From: Eledone cirrhosa
Lineage: Eukaryota
DNA: 64,000 bases
Direction of reading: 5' to 3'
Assembly: GCA_964016885.1 (NCBI GenBank)
Contig: OZ024748.1
Coordinates: 12,586,001 to 12,650,000, forward strand
Shown here: piece by piece, positions 9,376-61,065 of the stretch
Numbering within the stretch: the first letter of the stretch is position 1
Layout: every line of letters begins with the position of its first letter
Made by a program: the position numbers and the translations under genes
Notes under the pieces: generated by a model
Seen by the model: the letters and a program-made list of their open reading frames with translations, nothing else
Databases searched by the model: none
What the model was told of the DNA's origin: nothing

Positions 9376-9752
9376 GTAAATATTGCTGATGAGTTGTAAC
9401 AACAACGAAACTAGTTCAATATTCCTTGTCTGGCTTTCTGGAGAATAGAGGAAAGGTGTTTCCTCAAAAACCAGTATGACTCTAAAAACCGGTTTGTCTG
9501 TGTGTTTACATACAGAATAGCTGGCCACTCACAGTAAAGTGACCAGTGAAAAAACTTGGTACATCTACATATGTATACGTGTGTGTATTCATATACATAC
9601 TAGTATTTCAGTATACATATATGGATGTACATCTTTAACTTAATTGTTTAAGCGTCAGTCATACAAAAGTGAGTTACAAACGAAACGAAATTTAATTTCG
9701 TTTCGTTATTTGTTTTTATCGTCTCCGTTGAACCGGTACTTACTCACACTCT

Positions 9753-9805
9753 ATGCAAATTGGTCTGCCCACTACTAATTTTCATAGAAAAAGCATATAA
9801 CGATA
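9753..9805 (+). promoter_or_regulatory. Putative snRNA-type internal promoter module (octamer, PSE-like block, TATA-like), repeated in every unit
   Basis: ATGCAAAT 9753-9760, TAATTTTCATA 9776-9786, GCATATAA 9793-9800; same order conserved in the diverged array B unit. Confidence 0.45.
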
Positions 9806-9840
9806 TGTGCTTTTACGATTCTCTAGAGAGGCCGGAAGAT

Positions 9841-9893
9841 AGGTAAATATTGCTGATGAGTTGTAACAACAACGAAACTAGTTCAATATTCCT
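9841..9893 (+). ncRNA. Type I hammerhead ribozyme (representative of the 22 copies in array A)
   Basis: AGG-TA bulge-AATATTG / CTGATGA / GTTGT-AACA-ACAAC / GAAA / C-TA-G / TT^ / CAATATT-CCT; predicted cleavage after GUU at 9883. Confidence 0.9.
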
Positions 9894-12800
9894 TGTCTGG
9901 CTTTCTGGAGAATAGAGGAAAGGTGTTTCCTCAAAAACCAGTATGACTCTAAAAACCGGTTTGTCTGTGTGTTTACATACAGAATAGCTGGCCACTCACA
10001 GTAAAGTGACCAGTGAAAAAACTTGGTACATCTACATATGTATACGTGTGTGTATTCATATACATACTAGTATTTCAGTATACATATATGGATGTACATC
10101 TTTAACTTAATTGTTTAAGCGTCAGTCATACAAAAGTGAGTTACAAACGAAACGAAATTTAATTTCGTTTCGTTATTTGTTTTTATCGTCTCCGTTGAAC
10201 CGGTACTTACTCACACTCTATGCAAATTGGTCTGCCCACTACTAATTTTCATAGAAAAAGCATATAACGATATGTGCTTTTACGATTCTCTAGAGAGGCC
10301 GGAAGATAGGTAAATATTGCTGATGAGTTGTAACAACAACGAAACTAGTTCAATATTCCTTGTCTGGCTTTCTGGAGAATAGAGGAAAGGTGTTTCCTCA
10401 AAAACCAGTATGACTCTAAAAACCGGTTTGTCTGTGTGTTTACATACAGAATAGCTGGCCACTCACAGTAAAGTGACCAGTGAAAAAACTTGGTACATCT
10501 ACATATGTATACGTGTGTGTATTCATATACATACTAGTATTTCAGTATACATATATGGATGTACATCTTTAACTTAATTGTTTAAGCGTCAGTCATACAA
10601 AAGTGAGTTACAAACGAAACGAAATTTAATTTCGTTTCGTTATTTGTTTTTATCGTCTCCGTTGAACCGGTACTTACTCACACTCTATGCAAATTGGTCT
10701 GCCCACTACTAATTTTCATAGAAAAAGCATATAACGATATGTGCTTTTACGATTCTCTAGAGAGGCCGGAAGATAGGTAAATATTGCTGATGAGTTGTAA
10801 CAACAACGAAACTAGTTCAATATTCCTTGTCTGGCTTTCTGGAGAATAGAGGAAAGGTGTTTCCTCAAAAACCAGTATGACTCTAAAAACCGGTTTGTCT
10901 GTGTGTTTACATACAGAATAGCTGGCCACTCACAGTAAAGTGACCAGTGAAAAAACTTGGTACATCTACATATGTATACGTGTGTGTATTCATATACATA
11001 CTAGTATTTCAGTATACATATATGGATGTACATCTTTAACTTAATTGTTTAAGCGTCAGTCATACAAAAGTGAGTTACAAACGAAACGAAATTTAATTTC
11101 GTTTCGTTATTTGTTTTTATCGTCTCCGTTGAACCGGTACTTACTCACACTCTATGCAAATTGGTCTGCCCACTACTAATTTTCATAGAAAAAGCATATA
11201 ACGATATGTGCTTTTACGATTCTCTAGAGAGGCCGGAAGATAGGTAAATATTGCTGATGAGTTGTAACAACAACGAAACTAGTTCAATATTCCTTGTCTG
11301 GCTTTCTGGAGAATAGAGGAAAGGTGTTTCCTCAAAAACCAGTATGACTCTAAAAACCGGTTTGTCTGTGTGTTTACATACAGAATAGCTGGCCACTCAC
11401 AGTAAAGTGACCAGTGAAAAAACTTGGTACATCTACATATGTATACGTGTGTGTATTCATATACATACTAGTATTTCAGTATACATATATGGATGTACAT
11501 CTTTAACTTAATTGTTTAAGCGTCAGTCATACAAAAGTGAGTTACAAACGAAACGAAATTTAATTTCGTTTCGTTATTTGTTTTTATCGTCTCCGTTGAA
11601 CCGGTACTTACTCACACTCTATGCAAATTGGTCTGCCCACTACTAATTTTCATAGAAAAAGCATATAACGATATGTGCTTTTACGATTCTCTAGAGAGGC
11701 CGGAAGATAGGTAAATATTGCTGATGAGTTGTAACAACAACGAAACTAGTTCAATATTCCTTGTCTGGCTTTCTGGAGAATAGAGGAAAGGTGTTTCCTC
11801 AAAAACCAGTATGACTCTAAAAACCGGTTTGTCTGTGTGTTTACATACAGAATAGCTGGCCACTCACAGTAAAGTGACCAGTGAAAAAACTTGGTACATC
11901 TACATATGTATACGTGTGTGTATTCATATACATACTAGTATTTCAGTATACATATATGGATGTACATCTTTAACTTAATTGTTTAAGCGTCAGTCATACA
12001 AAAGTGAGTTACAAACGAAACGAAATTTAATTTCGTTTCGTTATTTGTTTTTATCGTCTCCGTTGAACCGGTACTTACTCACACTCTATGCAAATTGGTC
12101 TGCCCACTACTAATTTTCATAGAAAAAGCATATAACGATATGTGCTTTTACGATTCTCTAGAGAGGCCGGAAGATAGGTAAATATTGCTGATGAGTTGTA
12201 ACAACAACGAAACTAGTTCAATATTCCTTGTCTGGCTTTCTGGAGAATAGAGGAAAGGTGTTTCCTCAAAAACCAGTATGACTCTAAAAACCGGTTTGTC
12301 TGTGTGTTTACATACAGAATAGCTGGCCACTCACAGTAAAGTGACCAGTGAAAAAACTTGGTACATCTACATATGTATACGTGTGTGTATTCATATACAT
12401 ACTAGTATTTCAGTATACATATATGGATGTACATCTTTAACTTAATTGTTTAAGCGTCAGTCATACAAAAGTGAGTTACAAACGAAACGAAATTTAATTT
12501 CGTTTCGTTATTTGTTTTTATCGTCTCCGTTGAACCGGTACTTACTCACACTCTATGCAAATTGGTCTGCCCACTACTAATTTTCATAGAAAAAGCATAT
12601 AACGATATGTGCTTTTACGATTCTCTAGAGAGGCCGGAAGATAGGTAAATATTGCTGATGAGTTGTAACAACAACGAAACTAGTTCAATATTCCTTGTCT
12701 GGCTTTCTGGAGAATAGAGGAAAGGTGTTTCCTCAAAAACCAGTATGACTCTAAAAACCGGTTTGTCTGTGTGTTTACATACAGAATAGCTGGCCACTCA

Positions 12801-15800
12801 CAGTAAAGTGACCAGTGAAAAAACTTGGTACATCTACATATGTATACGTGTGTGTATTCATATACATACTAGTATTTCAGTATACATATATGGATGTACA
12901 TCTTTAACTTAATTGTTTAAGCGTCAGTCATACAAAAGTGAGTTACAAACGAAACGAAATTTAATTTCGTTTCGTTATTTGTTTTTATCGTCTCCGTTGA
13001 ACCGGTACTTACTCACACTCTATGCAAATTGGTCTGCCCACTACTAATTTTCATAGAAAAAGCATATAACGATATGTGCTTTTACGATTCTCTAGAGAGG
13101 CCGGAAGATAGGTAAATATTGCTGATGAGTTGTAACAACAACGAAACTAGTTCAATATTCCTTGTCTGGCTTTCTGGAGAATAGAGGAAAGGTGTTTCCT
13201 CAAAAACCAGTATGACTCTAAAAACCGGTTTGTCTGTGTGTTTACATACAGAATAGCTGGCCACTCACAGTAAAGTGACCAGTGAAAAAACTTGGTACAT
13301 CTACATATGTATACGTGTGTGTATTCATATACATACTAGTATTTCAGTATACATATATGGATGTACATCTTTAACTTAATTGTTTAAGCGTCAGTCATAC
13401 AAAAGTGAGTTACAAACGAAACGAAATTTAATTTCGTTTCGTTATTTGTTTTTATCGTCTCCGTTGAACCGGTACTTACTCACACTCTATGCAAATTGGT
13501 CTGCCCACTACTAATTTTCATAGAAAAAGCATATAACGATATGTGCTTTTACGATTCTCTAGAGAGGCCGGAAGATAGGTAAATATTGCTGATGAGTTGT
13601 AACAACAACGAAACTAGTTCAATATTCCTTGTCTGGCTTTCTGGAGAATAGAGGAAAGGTGTTTCCTCAAAAACCAGTATGACTCTAAAAACCGGTTTGT
13701 CTGTGTGTTTACATACAGAATAGCTGGCCACTCACAGTAAAGTGACCAGTGAAAAAACTTGGTACATCTACATATGTATACGTGTGTGTATTCATATACA
13801 TACTAGTATTTCAGTATACATATATGGATGTACATCTTTAACTTAATTGTTTAAGCGTCAGTCATACAAAAGTGAGTTACAAACGAAACGAAATTTAATT
13901 TCGTTTCGTTATTTGTTTTTATCGTCTCCGTTGAACCGGTACTTACTCACACTCTATGCAAATTGGTCTGCCCACTACTAATTTTCATAGAAAAAGCATA
14001 TAACGATATGTGCTTTTACGATTCTCTAGAGAGGCCGGAAGATAGGTAAATATTGCTGATGAGTTGTAACAACAACGAAACTAGTTCAATATTCCTTGTC
14101 TGGCTTTCTGGAGAATAGAGGAAAGGTGTTTCCTCAAAAACCAGTATGACTCTAAAAACCGGTTTGTCTGTGTGTTTACATACAGAATAGCTGGCCACTC
14201 ACAGTAAAGTGACCAGTGAAAAAACTTGGTACATCTACATATGTATACGTGTGTGTATTCATATACATACTAGTATTTCAGTATACATATATGGATGTAC
14301 ATCTTTAACTTAATTGTTTAAGCGTCAGTCATACAAAAGTGAGTTACAAACGAAACGAAATTTAATTTCGTTTCGTTATTTGTTTTTATCGTCTCCGTTG
14401 AACCGGTACTTACTCACACTCTATGCAAATTGGTCTGCCCACTACTAATTTTCATAGAAAAAGCATATAACGATATGTGCTTTTACGATTCTCTAGAGAG
14501 GCCGGAAGATAGGTAAATATTGCTGATGAGTTGTAACAACAACGAAACTAGTTCAATATTCCTTGTCTGGCTTTCTGGAGAATAGAGGAAAGGTGTTTCC
14601 TCAAAAACCAGTATGACTCTAAAAACCGGTTTGTCTGTGTGTTTACATACAGAATAGCTGGCCACTCACAGTAAAGTGACCAGTGAAAAAACTTGGTACA
14701 TCTACATATGTATACGTGTGTGTATTCATATACATACTAGTATTTCAGTATACATATATGGATGTACATCTTTAACTTAATTGTTTAAGCGTCAGTCATA
14801 CAAAAGTGAGTTACAAACGAAACGAAATTTAATTTCGTTTCGTTATTTGTTTTTATCGTCTCCGTTGAACCGGTACTTACTCACACTCTATGCAAATTGG
14901 TCTGCCCACTACTAATTTTCATAGAAAAAGCATATAACGATATGTGCTTTTACGATTCTCTAGAGAGGCCGGAAGATAGGTAAATATTGCTGATGAGTTG
15001 TAACAACAACGAAACTAGTTCAATATTCCTTGTCTGGCTTTCTGGAGAATAGAGGAAAGGTGTTTCCTCAAAAACCAGTATGACTCTAAAAACCGGTTTG
15101 TCTGTGTGTTTACATACAGAATAGCTGGCCACTCACAGTAAAGTGACCAGTGAAAAAACTTGGTACATCTACATATGTATACGTGTGTGTATTCATATAC
15201 ATACTAGTATTTCAGTATACATATATGGATGTACATCTTTAACTTAATTGTTTAAGCGTCAGTCATACAAAAGTGAGTTACAAACGAAACGAAATTTAAT
15301 TTCGTTTCGTTATTTGTTTTTATCGTCTCCGTTGAACCGGTACTTACTCACACTCTATGCAAATTGGTCTGCCCACTACTAATTTTCATAGAAAAAGCAT
15401 ATAACGATATGTGCTTTTACGATTCTCTAGAGAGGCCGGAAGATAGGTAAATATTGCTGATGAGTTGTAACAACAACGAAACTAGTTCAATATTCCTTGT
15501 CTGGCTTTCTGGAGAATAGAGGAAAGGTGTTTCCTCAAAAACCAGTATGACTCTAAAAACCGGTTTGTCTGTGTGTTTACATACAGAATAGCTGGCCACT
15601 CACAGTAAAGTGACCAGTGAAAAAACTTGGTACATCTACATATGTATACGTGTGTGTATTCATATACATACTAGTATTTCAGTATACATATATGGATGTA
15701 CATCTTTAACTTAATTGTTTAAGCGTCAGTCATACAAAAGTGAGTTACAAACGAAACGAAATTTAATTTCGTTTCGTTATTTGTTTTTATCGTCTCCGTT

Positions 15801-18800
15801 GAACCGGTACTTACTCACACTCTATGCAAATTGGTCTGCCCACTACTAATTTTCATAGAAAAAGCATATAACGATATGTGCTTTTACGATTCTCTAGAGA
15901 GGCCGGAAGATAGGTAAATATTGCTGATGAGTTGTAACAACAACGAAACTAGTTCAATATTCCTTGTCTGGCTTTCTGGAGAATAGAGGAAAGGTGTTTC
16001 CTCAAAAACCAGTATGACTCTAAAAACCGGTTTGTCTGTGTGTTTACATACAGAATAGCTGGCCACTCACAGTAAAGTGACCAGTGAAAAAACTTGGTAC
16101 ATCTACATATGTATACGTGTGTGTATTCATATACATACTAGTATTTCAGTATACATATATGGATGTACATCTTTAACTTAATTGTTTAAGCGTCAGTCAT
16201 ACAAAAGTGAGTTACAAACGAAACGAAATTTAATTTCGTTTCGTTATTTGTTTTTATCGTCTCCGTTGAACCGGTACTTACTCACACTCTATGCAAATTG
16301 GTCTGCCCACTACTAATTTTCATAGAAAAAGCATATAACGATATGTGCTTTTACGATTCTCTAGAGAGGCCGGAAGATAGGTAAATATTGCTGATGAGTT
16401 GTAACAACAACGAAACTAGTTCAATATTCCTTGTCTGGCTTTCTGGAGAATAGAGGAAAGGTGTTTCCTCAAAAACCAGTATGACTCTAAAAACCGGTTT
16501 GTCTGTGTGTTTACATACAGAATAGCTGGCCACTCACAGTAAAGTGACCAGTGAAAAAACTTGGTACATCTACATATGTATACGTGTGTGTATTCATATA
16601 CATACTAGTATTTCAGTATACATATATGGATGTACATCTTTAACTTAATTGTTTAAGCGTCAGTCATACAAAAGTGAGTTACAAACGAAACGAAATTTAA
16701 TTTCGTTTCGTTATTTGTTTTTATCGTCTCCGTTGAACCGGTACTTACTCACACTCTATGCAAATTGGTCTGCCCACTACTAATTTTCATAGAAAAAGCA
16801 TATAACGATATGTGCTTTTACGATTCTCTAGAGAGGCCGGAAGATAGGTAAATATTGCTGATGAGTTGTAACAACAACGAAACTAGTTCAATATTCCTTG
16901 TCTGGCTTTCTGGAGAATAGAGGAAAGGTGTTTCCTCAAAAACCAGTATGACTCTAAAAACCGGTTTGTCTGTGTGTTTACATACAGAATAGCTGGCCAC
17001 TCACAGTAAAGTGACCAGTGAAAAAACTTGGTACATCTACATATGTATACGTGTGTGTATTCATATACATACTAGTATTTCAGTATACATATATGGATGT
17101 ACATCTTTAACTTAATTGTTTAAGCGTCAGTCATACAAAAGTGAGTTACAAACGAAACGAAATTTAATTTCGTTTCGTTATTTGTTTTTATCGTCTCCGT
17201 TGAACCGGTACTTACTCACACTCTATGCAAATTGGTCTGCCCACTACTAATTTTCATAGAAAAAGCATATAACGATATGTGCTTTTACGATTCTCTAGAG
17301 AGGCCGGAAGATAGGTAAATATTGCTGATGAGTTGTAACAACAACGAAACTAGTTCAATATTCCTTGTCTGGCTTTCTGGAGAATAGAGGAAAGGTGTTT
17401 CCTCAAAAACCAGTATGACTCTAAAAACCGGTTTGTCTGTGTGTTTACATACAGAATAGCTGGCCACTCACAGTAAAGTGACCAGTGAAAAAACTTGGTA
17501 CATCTACATATGTATACGTGTGTGTATTCATATACATACTAGTATTTCAGTATACATATATGGATGTACATCTTTAACTTAATTGTTTAAGCGTCAGTCA
17601 TACAAAAGTGAGTTACAAACGAAACGAAATTTAATTTCGTTTCGTTATTTGTTTTTATCGTCTCCGTTGAACCGGTACTTACTCACACTCTATGCAAATT
17701 GGTCTGCCCACTACTAATTTTCATAGAAAAAGCATATAACGATATGTGCTTTTACGATTCTCTAGAGAGGCCGGAAGATAGGTAAATATTGCTGATGAGT
17801 TGTAACAACAACGAAACTAGTTCAATATTCCTTGTCTGGCTTTCTGGAGAATAGAGGAAAGGTGTTTCCTCAAAAACCAGTATGACTCTAAAAACCGGTT
17901 TGTCTGTGTGTTTACATACAGAATAGCTGGCCACTCACAGTAAAGTGACCAGTGAAAAAACTTGGTACATCTACATATGTATACGTGTGTGTATTCATAT
18001 ACATACTAGTATTTCAGTATACATATATGGATGTACATCTTTAACTTAATTGTTTAAGCGTCAGTCATACAAAAGTGAGTTACAAACGAAACGAAATTTA
18101 ATTTCGTTTCGTTATTTGTTTTTATCGTCTCCGTTGAACCGGTACTTACTCACACTCTATGCAAATTGGTCTGCCCACTACTAATTTTCATAGAAAAAGC
18201 ATATAACGATATGTGCTTTTACGATTCTCTAGAGAGGCCGGAAGATAGGTAAATATTGCTGATGAGTTGTAACAACAACGAAACTAGTTCAATATTCCTT
18301 GTCTGGCTTTCTGGAGAATAGAGGAAAGGTGTTTCCTCAAAAACCAGTATGACTCTAAAAACCGGTTTGTCTGTGTGTTTACATACAGAATAGCTGGCCA
18401 CTCACAGTAAAGTGACCAGTGAAAAAACTTGGTACATCTACATATGTATACGTGTGTGTATTCATATACATACTAGTATTTCAGTATACATATATGGATG
18501 TACATCTTTAACTTAATTGTTTAAGCGTCAGTCATACAAAAGTGAGTTACAAACGAAACGAAATTTAATTTCGTTTCGTTATTTGTTTTTATCGTCTCCG
18601 TTGAACCGGTACTTACTCACACTCTATGCAAATTGGTCTGCCCACTACTAATTTTCATAGAAAAAGCATATAACGATATGTGCTTTTACGATTCTCTAGA
18701 GAGGCCGGAAGATAGGTAAATATTGCTGATGAGTTGTAACAACAACGAAACTAGTTCAATATTCCTTGTCTGGCTTTCTGGAGAATAGAGGAAAGGTGTT

Positions 18801-19452
18801 TCCTCAAAAACCAGTATGACTCTAAAAACCGGTTTGTCTGTGTGTTTACATACAGAATAGCTGGCCACTCACAGTAAAGTGACCAGTGAAAAAACTTGGT
18901 ACATCTACATATGTATACGTGTGTGTATTCATATACATACTAGTATTTCAGTATACATATATGGATGTACATCTTTAACTTAATTGTTTAAGCGTCAGTC
19001 ATACAAAAGTGAGTTACAAACGAAACGAAATTTAATTTCGTTTCGTTATTTGTTTTTATCGTCTCCGTTGAACCGGTACTTACTCACACTCTATGCAAAT
19101 TGGTCTGCCCACTACTAATTTTCATAGAAAAAGCATATAACGATATGTGCTTTTACGATTCTCTAGAGAGGCCGGAAGATAGGTAAATATTGCTGATGAG
19201 TTGTAACAACAACGAAACTAGTTCAATATTCCTTGTCTGGCTTTCTGGAGAATAGAGGAAAGGTGTTTCCTCAAAAACCAGTATGACTCTAAAAACCGGT
19301 TTGTCTGTGTGTTTACATACAGAATAGCTGGCCACTCACAGTAAAGTGACCAGTGAAAAAACTTGGTACATCTACATATGTATACGTGTGTGTATTCATA
19401 TACATACTAGTATTTCAGTATACATATATGGATGTACATCTTTAACTTAATT

Positions 19453-19642
<190 letters not shown>

Positions 19643-27432: not shown

Positions 27433-27979
<547 letters not shown>

Positions 27980-27983
<4 letters not shown>

Positions 27984-28254
27984 TATGCATGTATACGTAC
28001 ATACATATATGTATACAGGCGTACAGTAGCATGCACATATATATATATATATACATATATACATACATGTGCATACAGGTACACATACATATATGCACGT
28101 ATCAGTTTAGCGGCGCCAACGTCGCTTTGTTCGTTTGTAAACAAACTGAACAGCCTGAATTTATGCCATACGGTGTTAAGGCAACCACGTCACCTTTTTG
28201 TTCAACACTGACACAGGAACGATGTACTAGTTTCAAGCTTGTTAGCTATCATCA
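27980..28254 (-). mobile_element. Inverted partial unit of array B
   Basis: Reverse complement of the unit from TGATGA (HHR core) to CATGCATACTTA; left end joins (TA)n; TCA microhomology at 28252-28254. Confidence 0.9.
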
Positions 28255-28336
28255 CTCAATATGCAAATTAGGCTGCTCAGCCGTTAATTTTCATAAGGAA
28301 AGTATATACTTTCGAACGTTCAACTATCTGGCAGAT

Positions 28337-28389
28337 GGGTAAACGGTGCTGATGATAGCTAACAAGCTTGAAACTAGTACATCGTTCCT
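28337..28389 (+). ncRNA. Type I hammerhead ribozyme (array B unit 1)
   Basis: GGG-TA-AACGGTG / CTGATGA / T-AGCT-AACA-AGCT-T / GAAA / C-TA-G / TA^ / CATCGTT-CCT; predicted cleavage after GUA at 28379; U-U mismatch at 10.1/11.1. Confidence 0.85.
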
Positions 28390-28802
28390 GTGTCAGTGTT
28401 GAACAAAAAGGTGACGTGGTTGCCTTAACACCGTATGGCATAAATTCAGGCTGTTCAGTTTGTTTACAAACGAACAAAGCGACGTTGGCGCCGCTAAACT
28501 GATACGTGCATATATGTATGTGTACCTGTATGCACATGTATGTATATATGTATATATATATATATATGTGCATGCTACTGTACGCCTGTATACATATATG
28601 TATGTACGTATACATGCATACTTACATTTAAGTAAGTGCCATACTAAGAGTGAGAAATGAAATTTCATTTTCATTTTGTTTCAATTTATCGTTTTCGGTA
28701 TGCCTGACCGATTTAACTCACTCAATATGCAAATTAGGCTGCTCAGCCGTTAATTTTCATAAGGAAAGTATATACTTTCGAACGTTCAACTATCTGGCAG
28801 AT

Positions 28803-28855
28803 GGGTAAACGGTGCTGATGATAGCTAACAAGCTTGAAACTAGTACATCGTTCCT
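28803..28855 (+). ncRNA. Type I hammerhead ribozyme (array B unit 2)
   Basis: Same sequence as 28337-28389, shifted +466. Confidence 0.85.
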
Positions 28856-29268
28856 GTGTCAGTGTTGAACAAAAAGGTGACGTGGTTGCCTTAACACCGT
28901 ATGGCATAAATTCAGGCTGTTCAGTTTGTTTACAAACGAACAAAGCGACGTTGGCGCCGCTAAACTGATACGTGCATATATGTATGTGTACCTGTATGCA
29001 CATGTATGTATATATGTATATATATATATATATGTGCATGCTACTGTACGCCTGTATACATATATGTATGTACGTATACATGCATACTTACATTTAAGTA
29101 AGTGCCATACTAAGAGTGAGAAATGAAATTTCATTTTCATTTTGTTTCAATTCATCGTTTTCGGTATGCCTGACCGATTTAACTCACTCAATATGCAAAT
29201 TAGGCTGCTCAGCCGTTAATTTTCATAAGGAAAGTATATACTTTCGAACGTTCAACTATCTGGCAGAT

Positions 29269-29321
29269 GGGTAAACGGTGCTGATGATAGCTAACAAGCT
29301 TGAAACTAGTACATCGTTCCT
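29269..29321 (+). ncRNA. Type I hammerhead ribozyme (array B unit 3)
   Basis: Same sequence as 28337-28389, shifted +932. Confidence 0.85.
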
Positions 29322-29615
29322 GTGTCAGTGTTGAACAAAAAGGTGACGTGGTTGCCTTAACACCGTATGGCATAAATTCAGGCTGTTCAGTTTGTTTACA
29401 AACGAACAAAGCGACGTTGGCGCCGCTAAACTGATACGTGCATATATGTATGTGTACCTGTATGCACATGTATGTATATATGTATATATATATATATATG
29501 TGCATGCTACTGTACGCCTGTATACATATATGTATGTACGTATACATGCATACTTACATTTAAGTAAGTGCCATACTAAGAGTGAGAAATGAAATTTCAT
29601 TTTCATTTTGTTTCA

Positions 29616-29668
<53 letters not shown>

Positions 29669-29671
<3 letters not shown>

Positions 29672-29790
29672 AAATAACAAAACAAACGGCATAGTACAAG
29701 GAAGTAATATATTAGTTTAACGCTTGAAATAGCAGGAAGAGAGTCTTAACATTTCGGACACTAGTCCTTCACCAGAAGATAGACAGAATA
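29669..29790 (-). mobile_element. Penelope-like pLTR fragment with degenerate minimal HHR (29744-29779)
   Basis: Minus strand TCTT-CTGGTGA-A-GGAC-TAGT-GTCC-GAAA-TG-TT-AAGA, two changes from the CTGATGAAGG..CCGAAACGT pattern of PLE HHRs; 3' end abuts (TA)n. Confidence 0.6.
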
Positions 29791-29818
29791 TTTATTTTTG
29801 TGCAATAATTGCTTATAC

Positions 29819-29908
<90 letters not shown>

Positions 29909-30368
29909 ATCTACACATACGCCCACTACAGATATAGAAATATAACATTGTTGTGTCGTGTTCCCTTTGTCCTCCTTTAACGGTTTTGTTGCACCTAAGT
30001 CTTGGTTATTAAGTGAGGGTCTGAACCAAAACATTGGAAACTCTTTATTTTAAAGCTCTCCAAACATCCGTGTCTGCTGACAGTGAGACAGAAAAGCAAC
30101 CGTAACTAATCACCATGTCATTAGTTCAAATGTTACTTGGTTCATTGAGAAAACAACACTGGAATAATTAGCTTAAACTAAACTAAAATATATAAATGAT
30201 ATACCTCCTTATATATTTATATACACTGAACAAACATTGCAATATAGATGTATACATCCATATGTATACATCCATATGTATACATCCATATGTATACATA
30301 CATATGTATACATACATATGTACATACAAACATACATACATACATACATACATGCATACATAGACACG

Positions 30369-47466: not shown

Positions 47467-47537
47467 TGCCGTTTCAACAGCTAGTTCCAGACTCTGGAAC
47501 TAGCTGTTGAAACGGCAAGAGCTCAGCCGTCGGGACC
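47467..47537 (+). other. 25-bp-arm palindrome overlapping the 3' half of an HHR-like motif
   Basis: Arms 47467-47491/47493-47517; GAAA-CGGC-AAGAGCTCA-GCCG-TC at 47509-47531; no CUGANGA. Confidence 0.5.
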
Positions 47538-47628: not shown

Positions 47629-47687
47629 CATTATACATATTTCAGGGATACCATATTAAAAATATGGCATGCCTTCTTCAGATAAAA
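47629..47687 (-). ncRNA. Degenerate hammerhead-like motif with long stem II
   Basis: Minus strand TTAT-CTGAAGA-AGG-C-ATGCCATATT-TTT-AATATGGTAT-C-CCT-GAAA-TATG-T-ATAA; cleavage-site spacing is one nucleotide short. Confidence 0.5.
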
Positions 47688-52559: not shown

Positions 52560-52930
52560 CTAGGAGAAGGAAAACTCTGATATAACACCTGCAACCCTGA
52601 TGGTATCCAATGATGTTGAATTGTTCTTCTTTTTGGTAAATATCATCTTGGTTAAGAGAGTGGGACTGGCTTTGTGCAGTGCCTTTGCTCACTATAAAAG
52701 CTTCACAGCACAGGCATTGCTTTGTATCTGGAGATCTCTCTGCACTTGTCGTCACATGGTACCATGGGCCCAGCACTATGTGTCAATAATTGTCACAAGT
52801 GTAGTGTTTGTACCAGAGTTTTCAAGTCGCTGGCTGGACTAAAAAGTCACACTCGTTCAGCGCATCGGTAGGGGTTCTCCTACATGGATATAAAGTAGTG
52901 GCCGTACTCGAAAACGAGTTGGCAGGCACC
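52560..52930 (-). mobile_element. Degenerate interspersed repeat in (TATG)n
   Basis: Similar to 46790-47210. Confidence 0.45.
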
Positions 52931-60886: not shown

Positions 60887-61065
60887 CGTTATTCCGGGTT
60901 GAATCGGAGGTAACCACAGTAAGTAAGGTACTCAATACATAGCAGAGTATAAAAGTTTTAATATAGATGAGATTCTACAGGACTAGAACTGTTTCATTCA
61001 TTAGAAAGATGATTTCTAATGAATGAAACAGTTCTAGTCCTGTAGAATCTCATCTATATTAAAAC
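60887..61065 (-). mobile_element. Fold-back element with truncated HHR, in (TA)n (copy 2)
   Basis: Perfect 53-bp arms 60955-61007/61013-61065 with loop GATGA; long arm is the reverse complement of 31081-31199. Confidence 0.75.

Follow-up and report, generated by a model that had tools for sequence, protein, structure and literature searches.

Array B and its repeat unit

The window, i.e. the whole stretch of 64,000 nucleotides that was analysed, is animal-like, microsatellite-rich DNA, perhaps of a cephalopod-like host, in which we identified a tandem array of a 466-nt unit (array B) enclosed by two runs of (TA)n. Specifically, the array consists of an inverted, 5′-truncated short arm and a long arm of direct units that meet head-to-head (Table 1). 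The succession of (TA)n, inverted partial unit, about 2.9 direct units (2.94 by our count) and (TA)n was confirmed with the coordinates given by the first-pass annotation, and 27980-28254 is, as it had stated, the reverse complement of part of the unit, with 275 of 275 positions identical to unit positions 99-373. An exact inverted copy of 275 nt is far beyond chance expectation (BLAST E 1.7e-143). If the hammerhead strand described below is taken as sense, the array has its two 3′ ends on the outside, facing (TA)n, and its 5′ ends abut head-to-head at the junction. Where a target-site duplication would lie, both flanks are pure (TA)n. Compound (CT)n(TA)n microsatellites, all in the same order on the plus strand, are found at six places in the window (27358, 27934, 36375, 38071, 43736 and 45747).

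Table 1. Positions of array B, the comparison elements and the SINE-like copies in the window. Unit positions of array B are counted from 28252 (unit position 1).
Feature	Position	Strand	Description
Array A, related family, separate insertion	9376..19457	+	21.6 units of 467 nt, 100% identical; 53% identical to B
D, left neighbour of B	27571..27893	-	older imperfect head-to-head palindrome, centre 27759, 75-nt one-sided extension
B, left (TA)24 run	27934..27981		(TC)20 just before; last 2 nt common to inverted arm
B, inverted 5′-truncated short arm	27980..28254	-	unit positions 99-373, 275/275 identical, 3′ end toward left (TA)n
B, broken hammerhead at short-arm start	28218..28254	-	starts within CUGAUGA, at U4 to U7; 5′ strand of helix I missing
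B, head-to-head junction	28252..28254		TCA, 3-nt overlap fitting both arms
B, long arm	28252..29621	+	466+466+438 nt = 2.94 direct 466-nt units
B, type I hammerhead motif 1	28342..28386	+	descriptor search; predicted cut after 28379
B, type I hammerhead motif 2	28808..28852	+	descriptor search; predicted cut after 28845
B, type I hammerhead motif 3	29274..29318	+	descriptor search; predicted cut after 29311
B, 3′ extension (tail), 65 nt	29557..29621	+	absent from the short arm; unit positions 374-438, with a hairpin conserved in array A
B, right (TA)25 run	29619..29668		first 3 nt common to element
C1	31017..31205	+	(TA)n, 58-nt inverted arm, junction in hammerhead core, 131-nt long arm, 72-nt tail, (TA)n
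C2 (family of C1)	60887..61065	-	short end as in C1, junction differing by 6 nt from that of C1, 68-nt tail, (TA)n at either end
SINE-like copies	3674, 6948, 33467, 33691, 34041, 35644, 41618, 51726, 61755, 62314

Direct units 1 and 3 of array B are identical and unit 2 differs at a single site, 29153 (C vs T). This is the sole difference among the four copies, inverted arm included (1 in 1642 nt), and it points to a young event. At unit position 236 (28953 in unit 2) all four copies, again including the inverted arm, carry G, whereas A was found in the entire depth of sequencing run X1 (125,575 of 125,575) and in the contig of run X2. The private G in both arms indicates that the arms derive from one template lineage, and the sharing of this base by all four copies supports the earlier view that array B is the result of one event.

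A descriptor search detected a type I hammerhead motif in all three direct units of array B and gave 22 matches in array A, one in every unit, compared with none in 3000 shuffled B units. The B hammerhead has a 7-bp helix I, the CUGAUGA box, a 4-bp helix II above a U-U mismatch, GAAA and a palindromic helix III of 6 nt. The units of array A have a predicted GUU cleavage site and fold as in B; helices I and II differ in sequence between A and B with their pairing retained. Rfam gave only a weak HH9 match for the B hammerhead (18.5 bits, E 0.4, below the gathering score), and at the gathering score the whole window had no match, the sub-threshold matches being hairpins and this weak HH9. The predicted fold of the motif is -2.0 kcal/mol as a monomer and -20.8 kcal/mol as a swapped dimer. 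For hammerheads with a short helix III a dimer model has been described (PMC4209133; statements on published work refer throughout to the accessible parts of the papers cited), and the far stronger dimer fold of B matches this model. At 47632-47681 (minus strand) the descriptor also matched a single AT-rich site, probably by chance.

As a circle, the hammerhead strand of the unit is predicted to be strongly folded, with z scores of -9.7 (B) and -11.0 (A) compared to -4.4 and -6.0 for the other strand (40 shuffles each); without the RY block the scores are -5.4 and -9.2. The predicted B circle is 67% paired. The helices of units A and B are collinear despite an identity of 257/484. Out of 157 predicted pairs 57 are common to A and B within 2 nt (100 controls: 11.3 +/- 9.1, maximum 42), and 22 are shared exactly, which is barely above the best control (3.6 +/- 4.7, maximum 21); only four of these 22 are compensatory.

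None of the four ORFs of array B has a Pfam family, and no reverse transcriptase or endonuclease was detected by Pfam among 93 of the 117 ORFs of the window, i.e. those left after 24 low-complexity or repeated ones were filtered out. Likewise, an autonomous ORF of a Penelope-like element (PLE), with telomerase-like RT and GIY-YIG domains, was found neither in the element nor among these 93 ORFs. The earlier proposal that the RT was supplied in trans gains support from this non-coding unit and the ORF search. Elsewhere in the window, a short ORF at 52698-52868 (plus strand) has a sub-cutoff match to a C2H2 zinc finger (E 6e-05) and is possibly an exon fragment.

Array B is a non-coding, hammerhead-bearing tandem repeat, a non-LTR retrozyme, for which cleavage and a circular RNA are predicted. 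It is the hammerhead motif, overlooked by the first-pass annotation, that places the unit among these elements. Of the features by which retrozymes are recognised we observed a short unit in tandem, complete type I hammerhead motifs in two or more successive units and the lack of coding capacity, together with a GC content below 50% (0.356 over 28001-30000) and a highly self-paired predicted circle.

Outside the window, contigs of run X1, which may stem from another individual or species, contained 4993 pieces matching the B unit in many variants, and this suggests that the family is abundant in the organism of X1, with a summed depth that does not represent a copy number. Run X2 gave a single 470-nt contig (depth 7.1) and run X5 nine pieces. 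The unit was at least partly present in 20 of the 24 sequencing runs listed, and at least half of it in 13 runs, with 15 studies represented and no RNA run among them. We rejected the many organism labels of these runs as a sign of horizontal transfer, since low-level carry-over of a high-copy repeat would give the same picture. In the contigs over the unit no strand-change joint was listed and two joints were internal skips, with seven of 96 loose ends shown, and contigs of this kind cannot show absence. A profile of A and B detected no further copy in the window apart from simple-repeat matches, and a scan with the hammerhead pattern gave no hit in metagenome contigs or in viral contigs. Four loci retrieved by a 19-mer (L001-L004, 3 + 1) were discarded as relatives because all of them are chance matches of 21-28 nt.

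Similarly built insertions and the position of their ends

Besides array A, three further elements were available for comparison (C1, C2 and D), which were found by a search for non-simple palindromes. A 51-nt near-perfect palindrome outside simple repeats was also seen at 47467-47517, without (TA)n flanks. C1 and C2 have short arms of 58 nt with an identical short end and, at the junction, a truncated hammerhead core that lacks helix I. In both elements the two arms copy the same segment and overlap fully, and the arms within each copy share a copy-specific base (one site, C2 vs C1). The arms of C1 differ at 1 of 58 positions, and in C2 the short arm extends 5 nt further in the 5′ direction than the long arm. 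Around a centre of 1 nt, C1 forms a near-perfect and D an imperfect palindrome. The extension of D runs into (TA)n and its other end lies in (CT)n; D has no intact hammerhead core. A solo 65-nt copy of the D extension (98% identical) is located between TA runs beside C1 (30936-31000). Array A ends in (TA)n at its 3′ side and its 5′ end is hidden in an N gap, so that a collapse of copy number is possible.

A, B, C1 and C2 together have seven visible ends, every one of them in (TA)n, and pure (TA)10+ makes up 7.2% of the remaining window. In contrast, none of nine SINE-like copies ends in (TA)n, with boundaries taken from BLAST. A preference for (TA)n, on which the earlier reading had been staked beforehand, is therefore borne out. 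The SINE-like copies belong to an interspersed family of 150-230 nt that is 80-93% alike, includes some tandem or inverted pairs and is not in (TA)n; it may resemble a cephalopod SINE, and a literature search with its repeat motif retrieved no paper. Other interspersed repeats, 160-215 nt long and with members about 84% alike, form two pairs at 37155-37351/37787-37997 and 36911-37072/51918-52084.

The microhomologies described by the first-pass annotation carry less weight. Instead of TTA/TTTAT, the true overlaps of array B with pure (TA)n are 2 nt at the inverted arm and 3 nt at the direct end. Breaks placed at random in the unit would overlap (TA)n by 2 nt or more in 24% and by 3 nt or more in 13% of cases, and priming by microhomology with (TA)n was rejected as being at chance level. 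The TCA overlap at 28252-28254 does fit both arms; as evidence it is weak, since a head-to-head microhomology of at least 3 nt is found for 6.8% of all position pairs in the unit.

It had further been claimed that the endpoints are unrelated to unit boundaries. Where a tandem unit begins is a matter of convention, however, and the claim therefore says little. Relative to RNA structure the ends look non-random in the four insertions. In B, C1 and C2 alike the short arm starts within the CUGAUGA box, at U4 to U7; C1 and C2 have the fixed short end mentioned above, and the one-sided tails have similar lengths (B 65 nt, C2 68, C1 72 and D 75). Array A ends in a hairpin that is homologous to the one at the short-arm end of B, 7 alignment columns away; this coincidence of ends is one case, with a probability of about 6% by chance. 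Taken together, these points suggest that the ends follow RNA structure.

The footprint of array B is, as proposed earlier, Penelope-like. PLEs are described as forming partial tandems, with an inverted 5′-truncated copy at the 5′ end, a tail of 30-40 bp that is often one-ended, (TA)n targets and no readable target-site duplication (PMC8557442; repeated in PMC8969392). Array B has the head-to-head inverted 5′-truncated copy, the partial tandem and the (TA)n target. It also has a one-sided extension, of 65 nt (68-75 nt in C1, C2 and D) compared to the published 30-40 bp. What is new, in a sample of four insertions, is that a retrozyme carries the PLE footprint, that the tails measure 65-75 nt and that arms start at the hammerhead core.

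Possible routes of insertion

Since the layout is that known from Penelope-type elements, insertion by enzymes of this type is likely, and we assign a probability of about 0.85 to PLE-type retrotransposition of array B in general. For the more specific version, in which a PLE enzyme acting in trans primed on both cut (TA)n strands, we see about even chances. The source array would be transcribed on the hammerhead strand, with an uncleaved multimer or a re-ligated circle as template. Both arms read through predicted cleavage sites, which points to a multimer, a re-ligated circle or template-jumped monomers; the sequence fits all three. A Penelope-like RT/GIY-YIG enzyme, probably as a dimer, would nick both strands in (TA)n. 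One nick would prime at a distal internal start (unit 438), from which 2.94 units are copied, and the other at a proximal start 65 nt upstream (unit 373), from which synthesis would stop at the hammerhead core. The two cDNA ends would then anneal via TCA/TGA, followed by fill-in, and the one-sided tail would correspond to the 65 nt between the starts at unit 438 and 373.

Several of these steps have counterparts in the work on purified PLE protein (PMC11167929). The protein cuts and extends both strands, prefers AT-rich DNA, is predicted to be dimeric, and initiates reverse transcription, in the absence of target homology, at two positions within the RNA that delimit the tail; hammerhead cleavage was dispensable for insertion in vitro. 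Mobilisation in trans by pLTR sequences alone has also been described (PMC3846280). A comparison of three motifs with the supplement of PMC8557442, as far as accessible, gave no match that would establish a pLTR link.

Less probable, though a serious rival, is a course in which the same PLE machinery primes only once, at unit 438. The 3′ end of the cDNA would fold back (TGA on TCA, with a 95-nt loop), second-strand synthesis would make the inverted arm, and an endonuclease would resolve the intermediate at the fixed short end. Self-copying of this kind guarantees that the arms share private variants, as they do in B and C, whereas two primings can account for the shared bases (B 236; C) only if one RNA or one source locus served for both arms. 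The palindromes of C1 and D with their 1-nt centre equally speak for self-priming and against two primings; they would be read as self-priming under PMC3846280, where it was proposed for head-to-head PLE junctions. Resolution by the endonuclease has been proposed for the tail (PMC8557442), and the short arm of B is nested wholly within the long arm. On the other hand, fold-back would rest on 3 nt of pairing, and the predicted fold at the B cDNA end forms no stable fold-back stem and leaves this end free. The landing site in B is in the hammerhead core (2 of the 9 TGA sites of the unit), which is where the C arms start as well. The 5 extra nucleotides of the C2 short arm count for two primings, since a simple fold-back cannot supply them and would need a later deletion of 6 nt in C2.

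An origin at the DNA level, either by capture of circular or tandem DNA at a broken (TA)n or by a replication template switch that inverted part of the array, appears very improbable. Long (TA)n runs are fragile, short overlaps occur at all three junctions, and identical arms would be expected from local copying, too. However, the ends avoid the internal TA block of the unit, where recombination would be expected; recombination through this block was rejected, as neither end of B lies within it. Nor would an event of this kind explain the recurrence of a short arm, a long arm and a 65-75-nt tail in three families, or the conserved RNA fold and hammerhead.

Twin priming as known from L1 produces a 5′ inversion with a short junction microhomology, as in B. 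This mechanism requires a poly(A) start and RNA segments that adjoin without overlapping, and it produces neither a fixed short end nor a tail. Array B alone would fit such a process by a LINE enzyme on one multimeric RNA, i.e. a transcript of 3.8 units with the second start 93 nt upstream of the first cDNA stop and a 3-nt junction overlap. B has no poly(A) or simple tail, however. C1 and C2 have a fixed short end, and one segment is represented in both of their arms; of the SINE-like copies in the window, none of nine lies in (TA)n. For these reasons we consider this course highly unlikely; the twin priming put forward by the first-pass annotation is not supported in its L1-type form, given that both arms of family C copy the same segment.

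A chimeric read that folded back on itself, or a wrong join at (TA)n, could be held responsible for the inverted arm, which matches the direct copies at 100%; the two outer joins lie in microsatellites, and the junction is known from the assembly alone. Yet the mirror ends at unit 373, a 95-nt unmirrored spacer remains, unit 2 keeps its own variant, and C1, C2 and D share the layout with diverged arms (1/58 mismatches in C1), so that such an artefact is highly unlikely.

A wider version of the preferred reading, i.e. insertion by PLE enzymes, is unlikely as a whole. It would take the footprint as direct evidence from the genome that PLE enzymes integrate retrozymes from circular RNA, with rolling-circle cDNA building the arrays (up to the 21.6 identical units of array A), two fixed starts 65-75 nt apart giving rise to a class of longer tails, and reverse transcription ending at the hammerhead core, which would thereby fix the extent of the inverted arm. 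If true, the PLE hammerhead would take part in integration independently of cleavage, and the tandem and inverted structures of PLEs could be counted on tens of thousands of young copies.

Comparison with known systems

To a specialist the layout of the footprint is textbook for PLEs, and the observation is useful rather than surprising. In PMC7229834 and 10.64898/2026.07.22.740005 the link between animal retrozymes and PLEs is based on shared hammerheads, co-occurrence and pLTR similarity. A retrozyme that carries the complete PLE footprint contributes a further line of evidence, the scar left by integration itself. The origin of the tandem and inverted structures of PLEs has been called undefined (PMC8557442). 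A young, high-copy family with fixed ends appears to be well suited to decide between two primings and fold-back, and on the RT stop at the hammerhead core. Literature searches, the scope of which lay outside Repbase, most subscription papers and preprint supplements, retrieved neither a description of the B family nor any inverted or tailed retrozyme insertions.

Non-LTR retrozymes of animals share with array B a non-coding tandem unit with a type I hammerhead per repeat (PMC7229834; bioRxiv 10.64898/2026.07.22.740005), as well as a low GC content, a strongly self-paired predicted circle and a high copy number (PMC7229834). The U-U mismatch at the base of helix II is also present in HHR_Amex2 of the axolotl (PMC7229834). 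The B unit of 466 nt exceeds the 150-450 bp first given for retrozymes and is within the range of 51-972 bp of 10.64898/2026.07.22.740005. Where retrozymes have a target-site duplication, it is longer than 4 bp. B differs by its inverted head, its one-sided tail and its flanks of (TA)n, which are absent from the accessible retrozyme descriptions in PMC7229834, 10.64898/2026.07.22.740005 and PMC7761336.

These latter features are instead shared with the endonuclease-bearing PLEs (Penelope/Poseidon, Neptune, Hydra and Naiad), from which a head-to-head inverted 5′-truncated copy and a partial tandem have been described, along with the one-sided tail, the (TA)n target, an unreadable target-site duplication and a hammerhead with a short palindromic helix III (PMC8557442, PMC3846280, PMC11167929). 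In Hydra and Neptune hammerheads occur together with a (TA)n bias, whereas Naiads, unlike B, are described as lacking canonical hammerheads (PMC8557442). B differs from all endonuclease-bearing PLEs in having no RT or GIY-YIG ORF, and in its tail of 65 nt compared to 30-40 bp. The non-autonomous Chlamys PLEs such as MRC1 resemble B as non-coding PLE passengers with multicopy head-to-tail insertions, but they are from green algae, use targets other than (TA)n and, as far as PMC8557442 describes them, mostly have no hammerhead. Array B is not an autonomous PLE; it behaves like a non-autonomous one and shows the tested features of non-LTR retrozymes.
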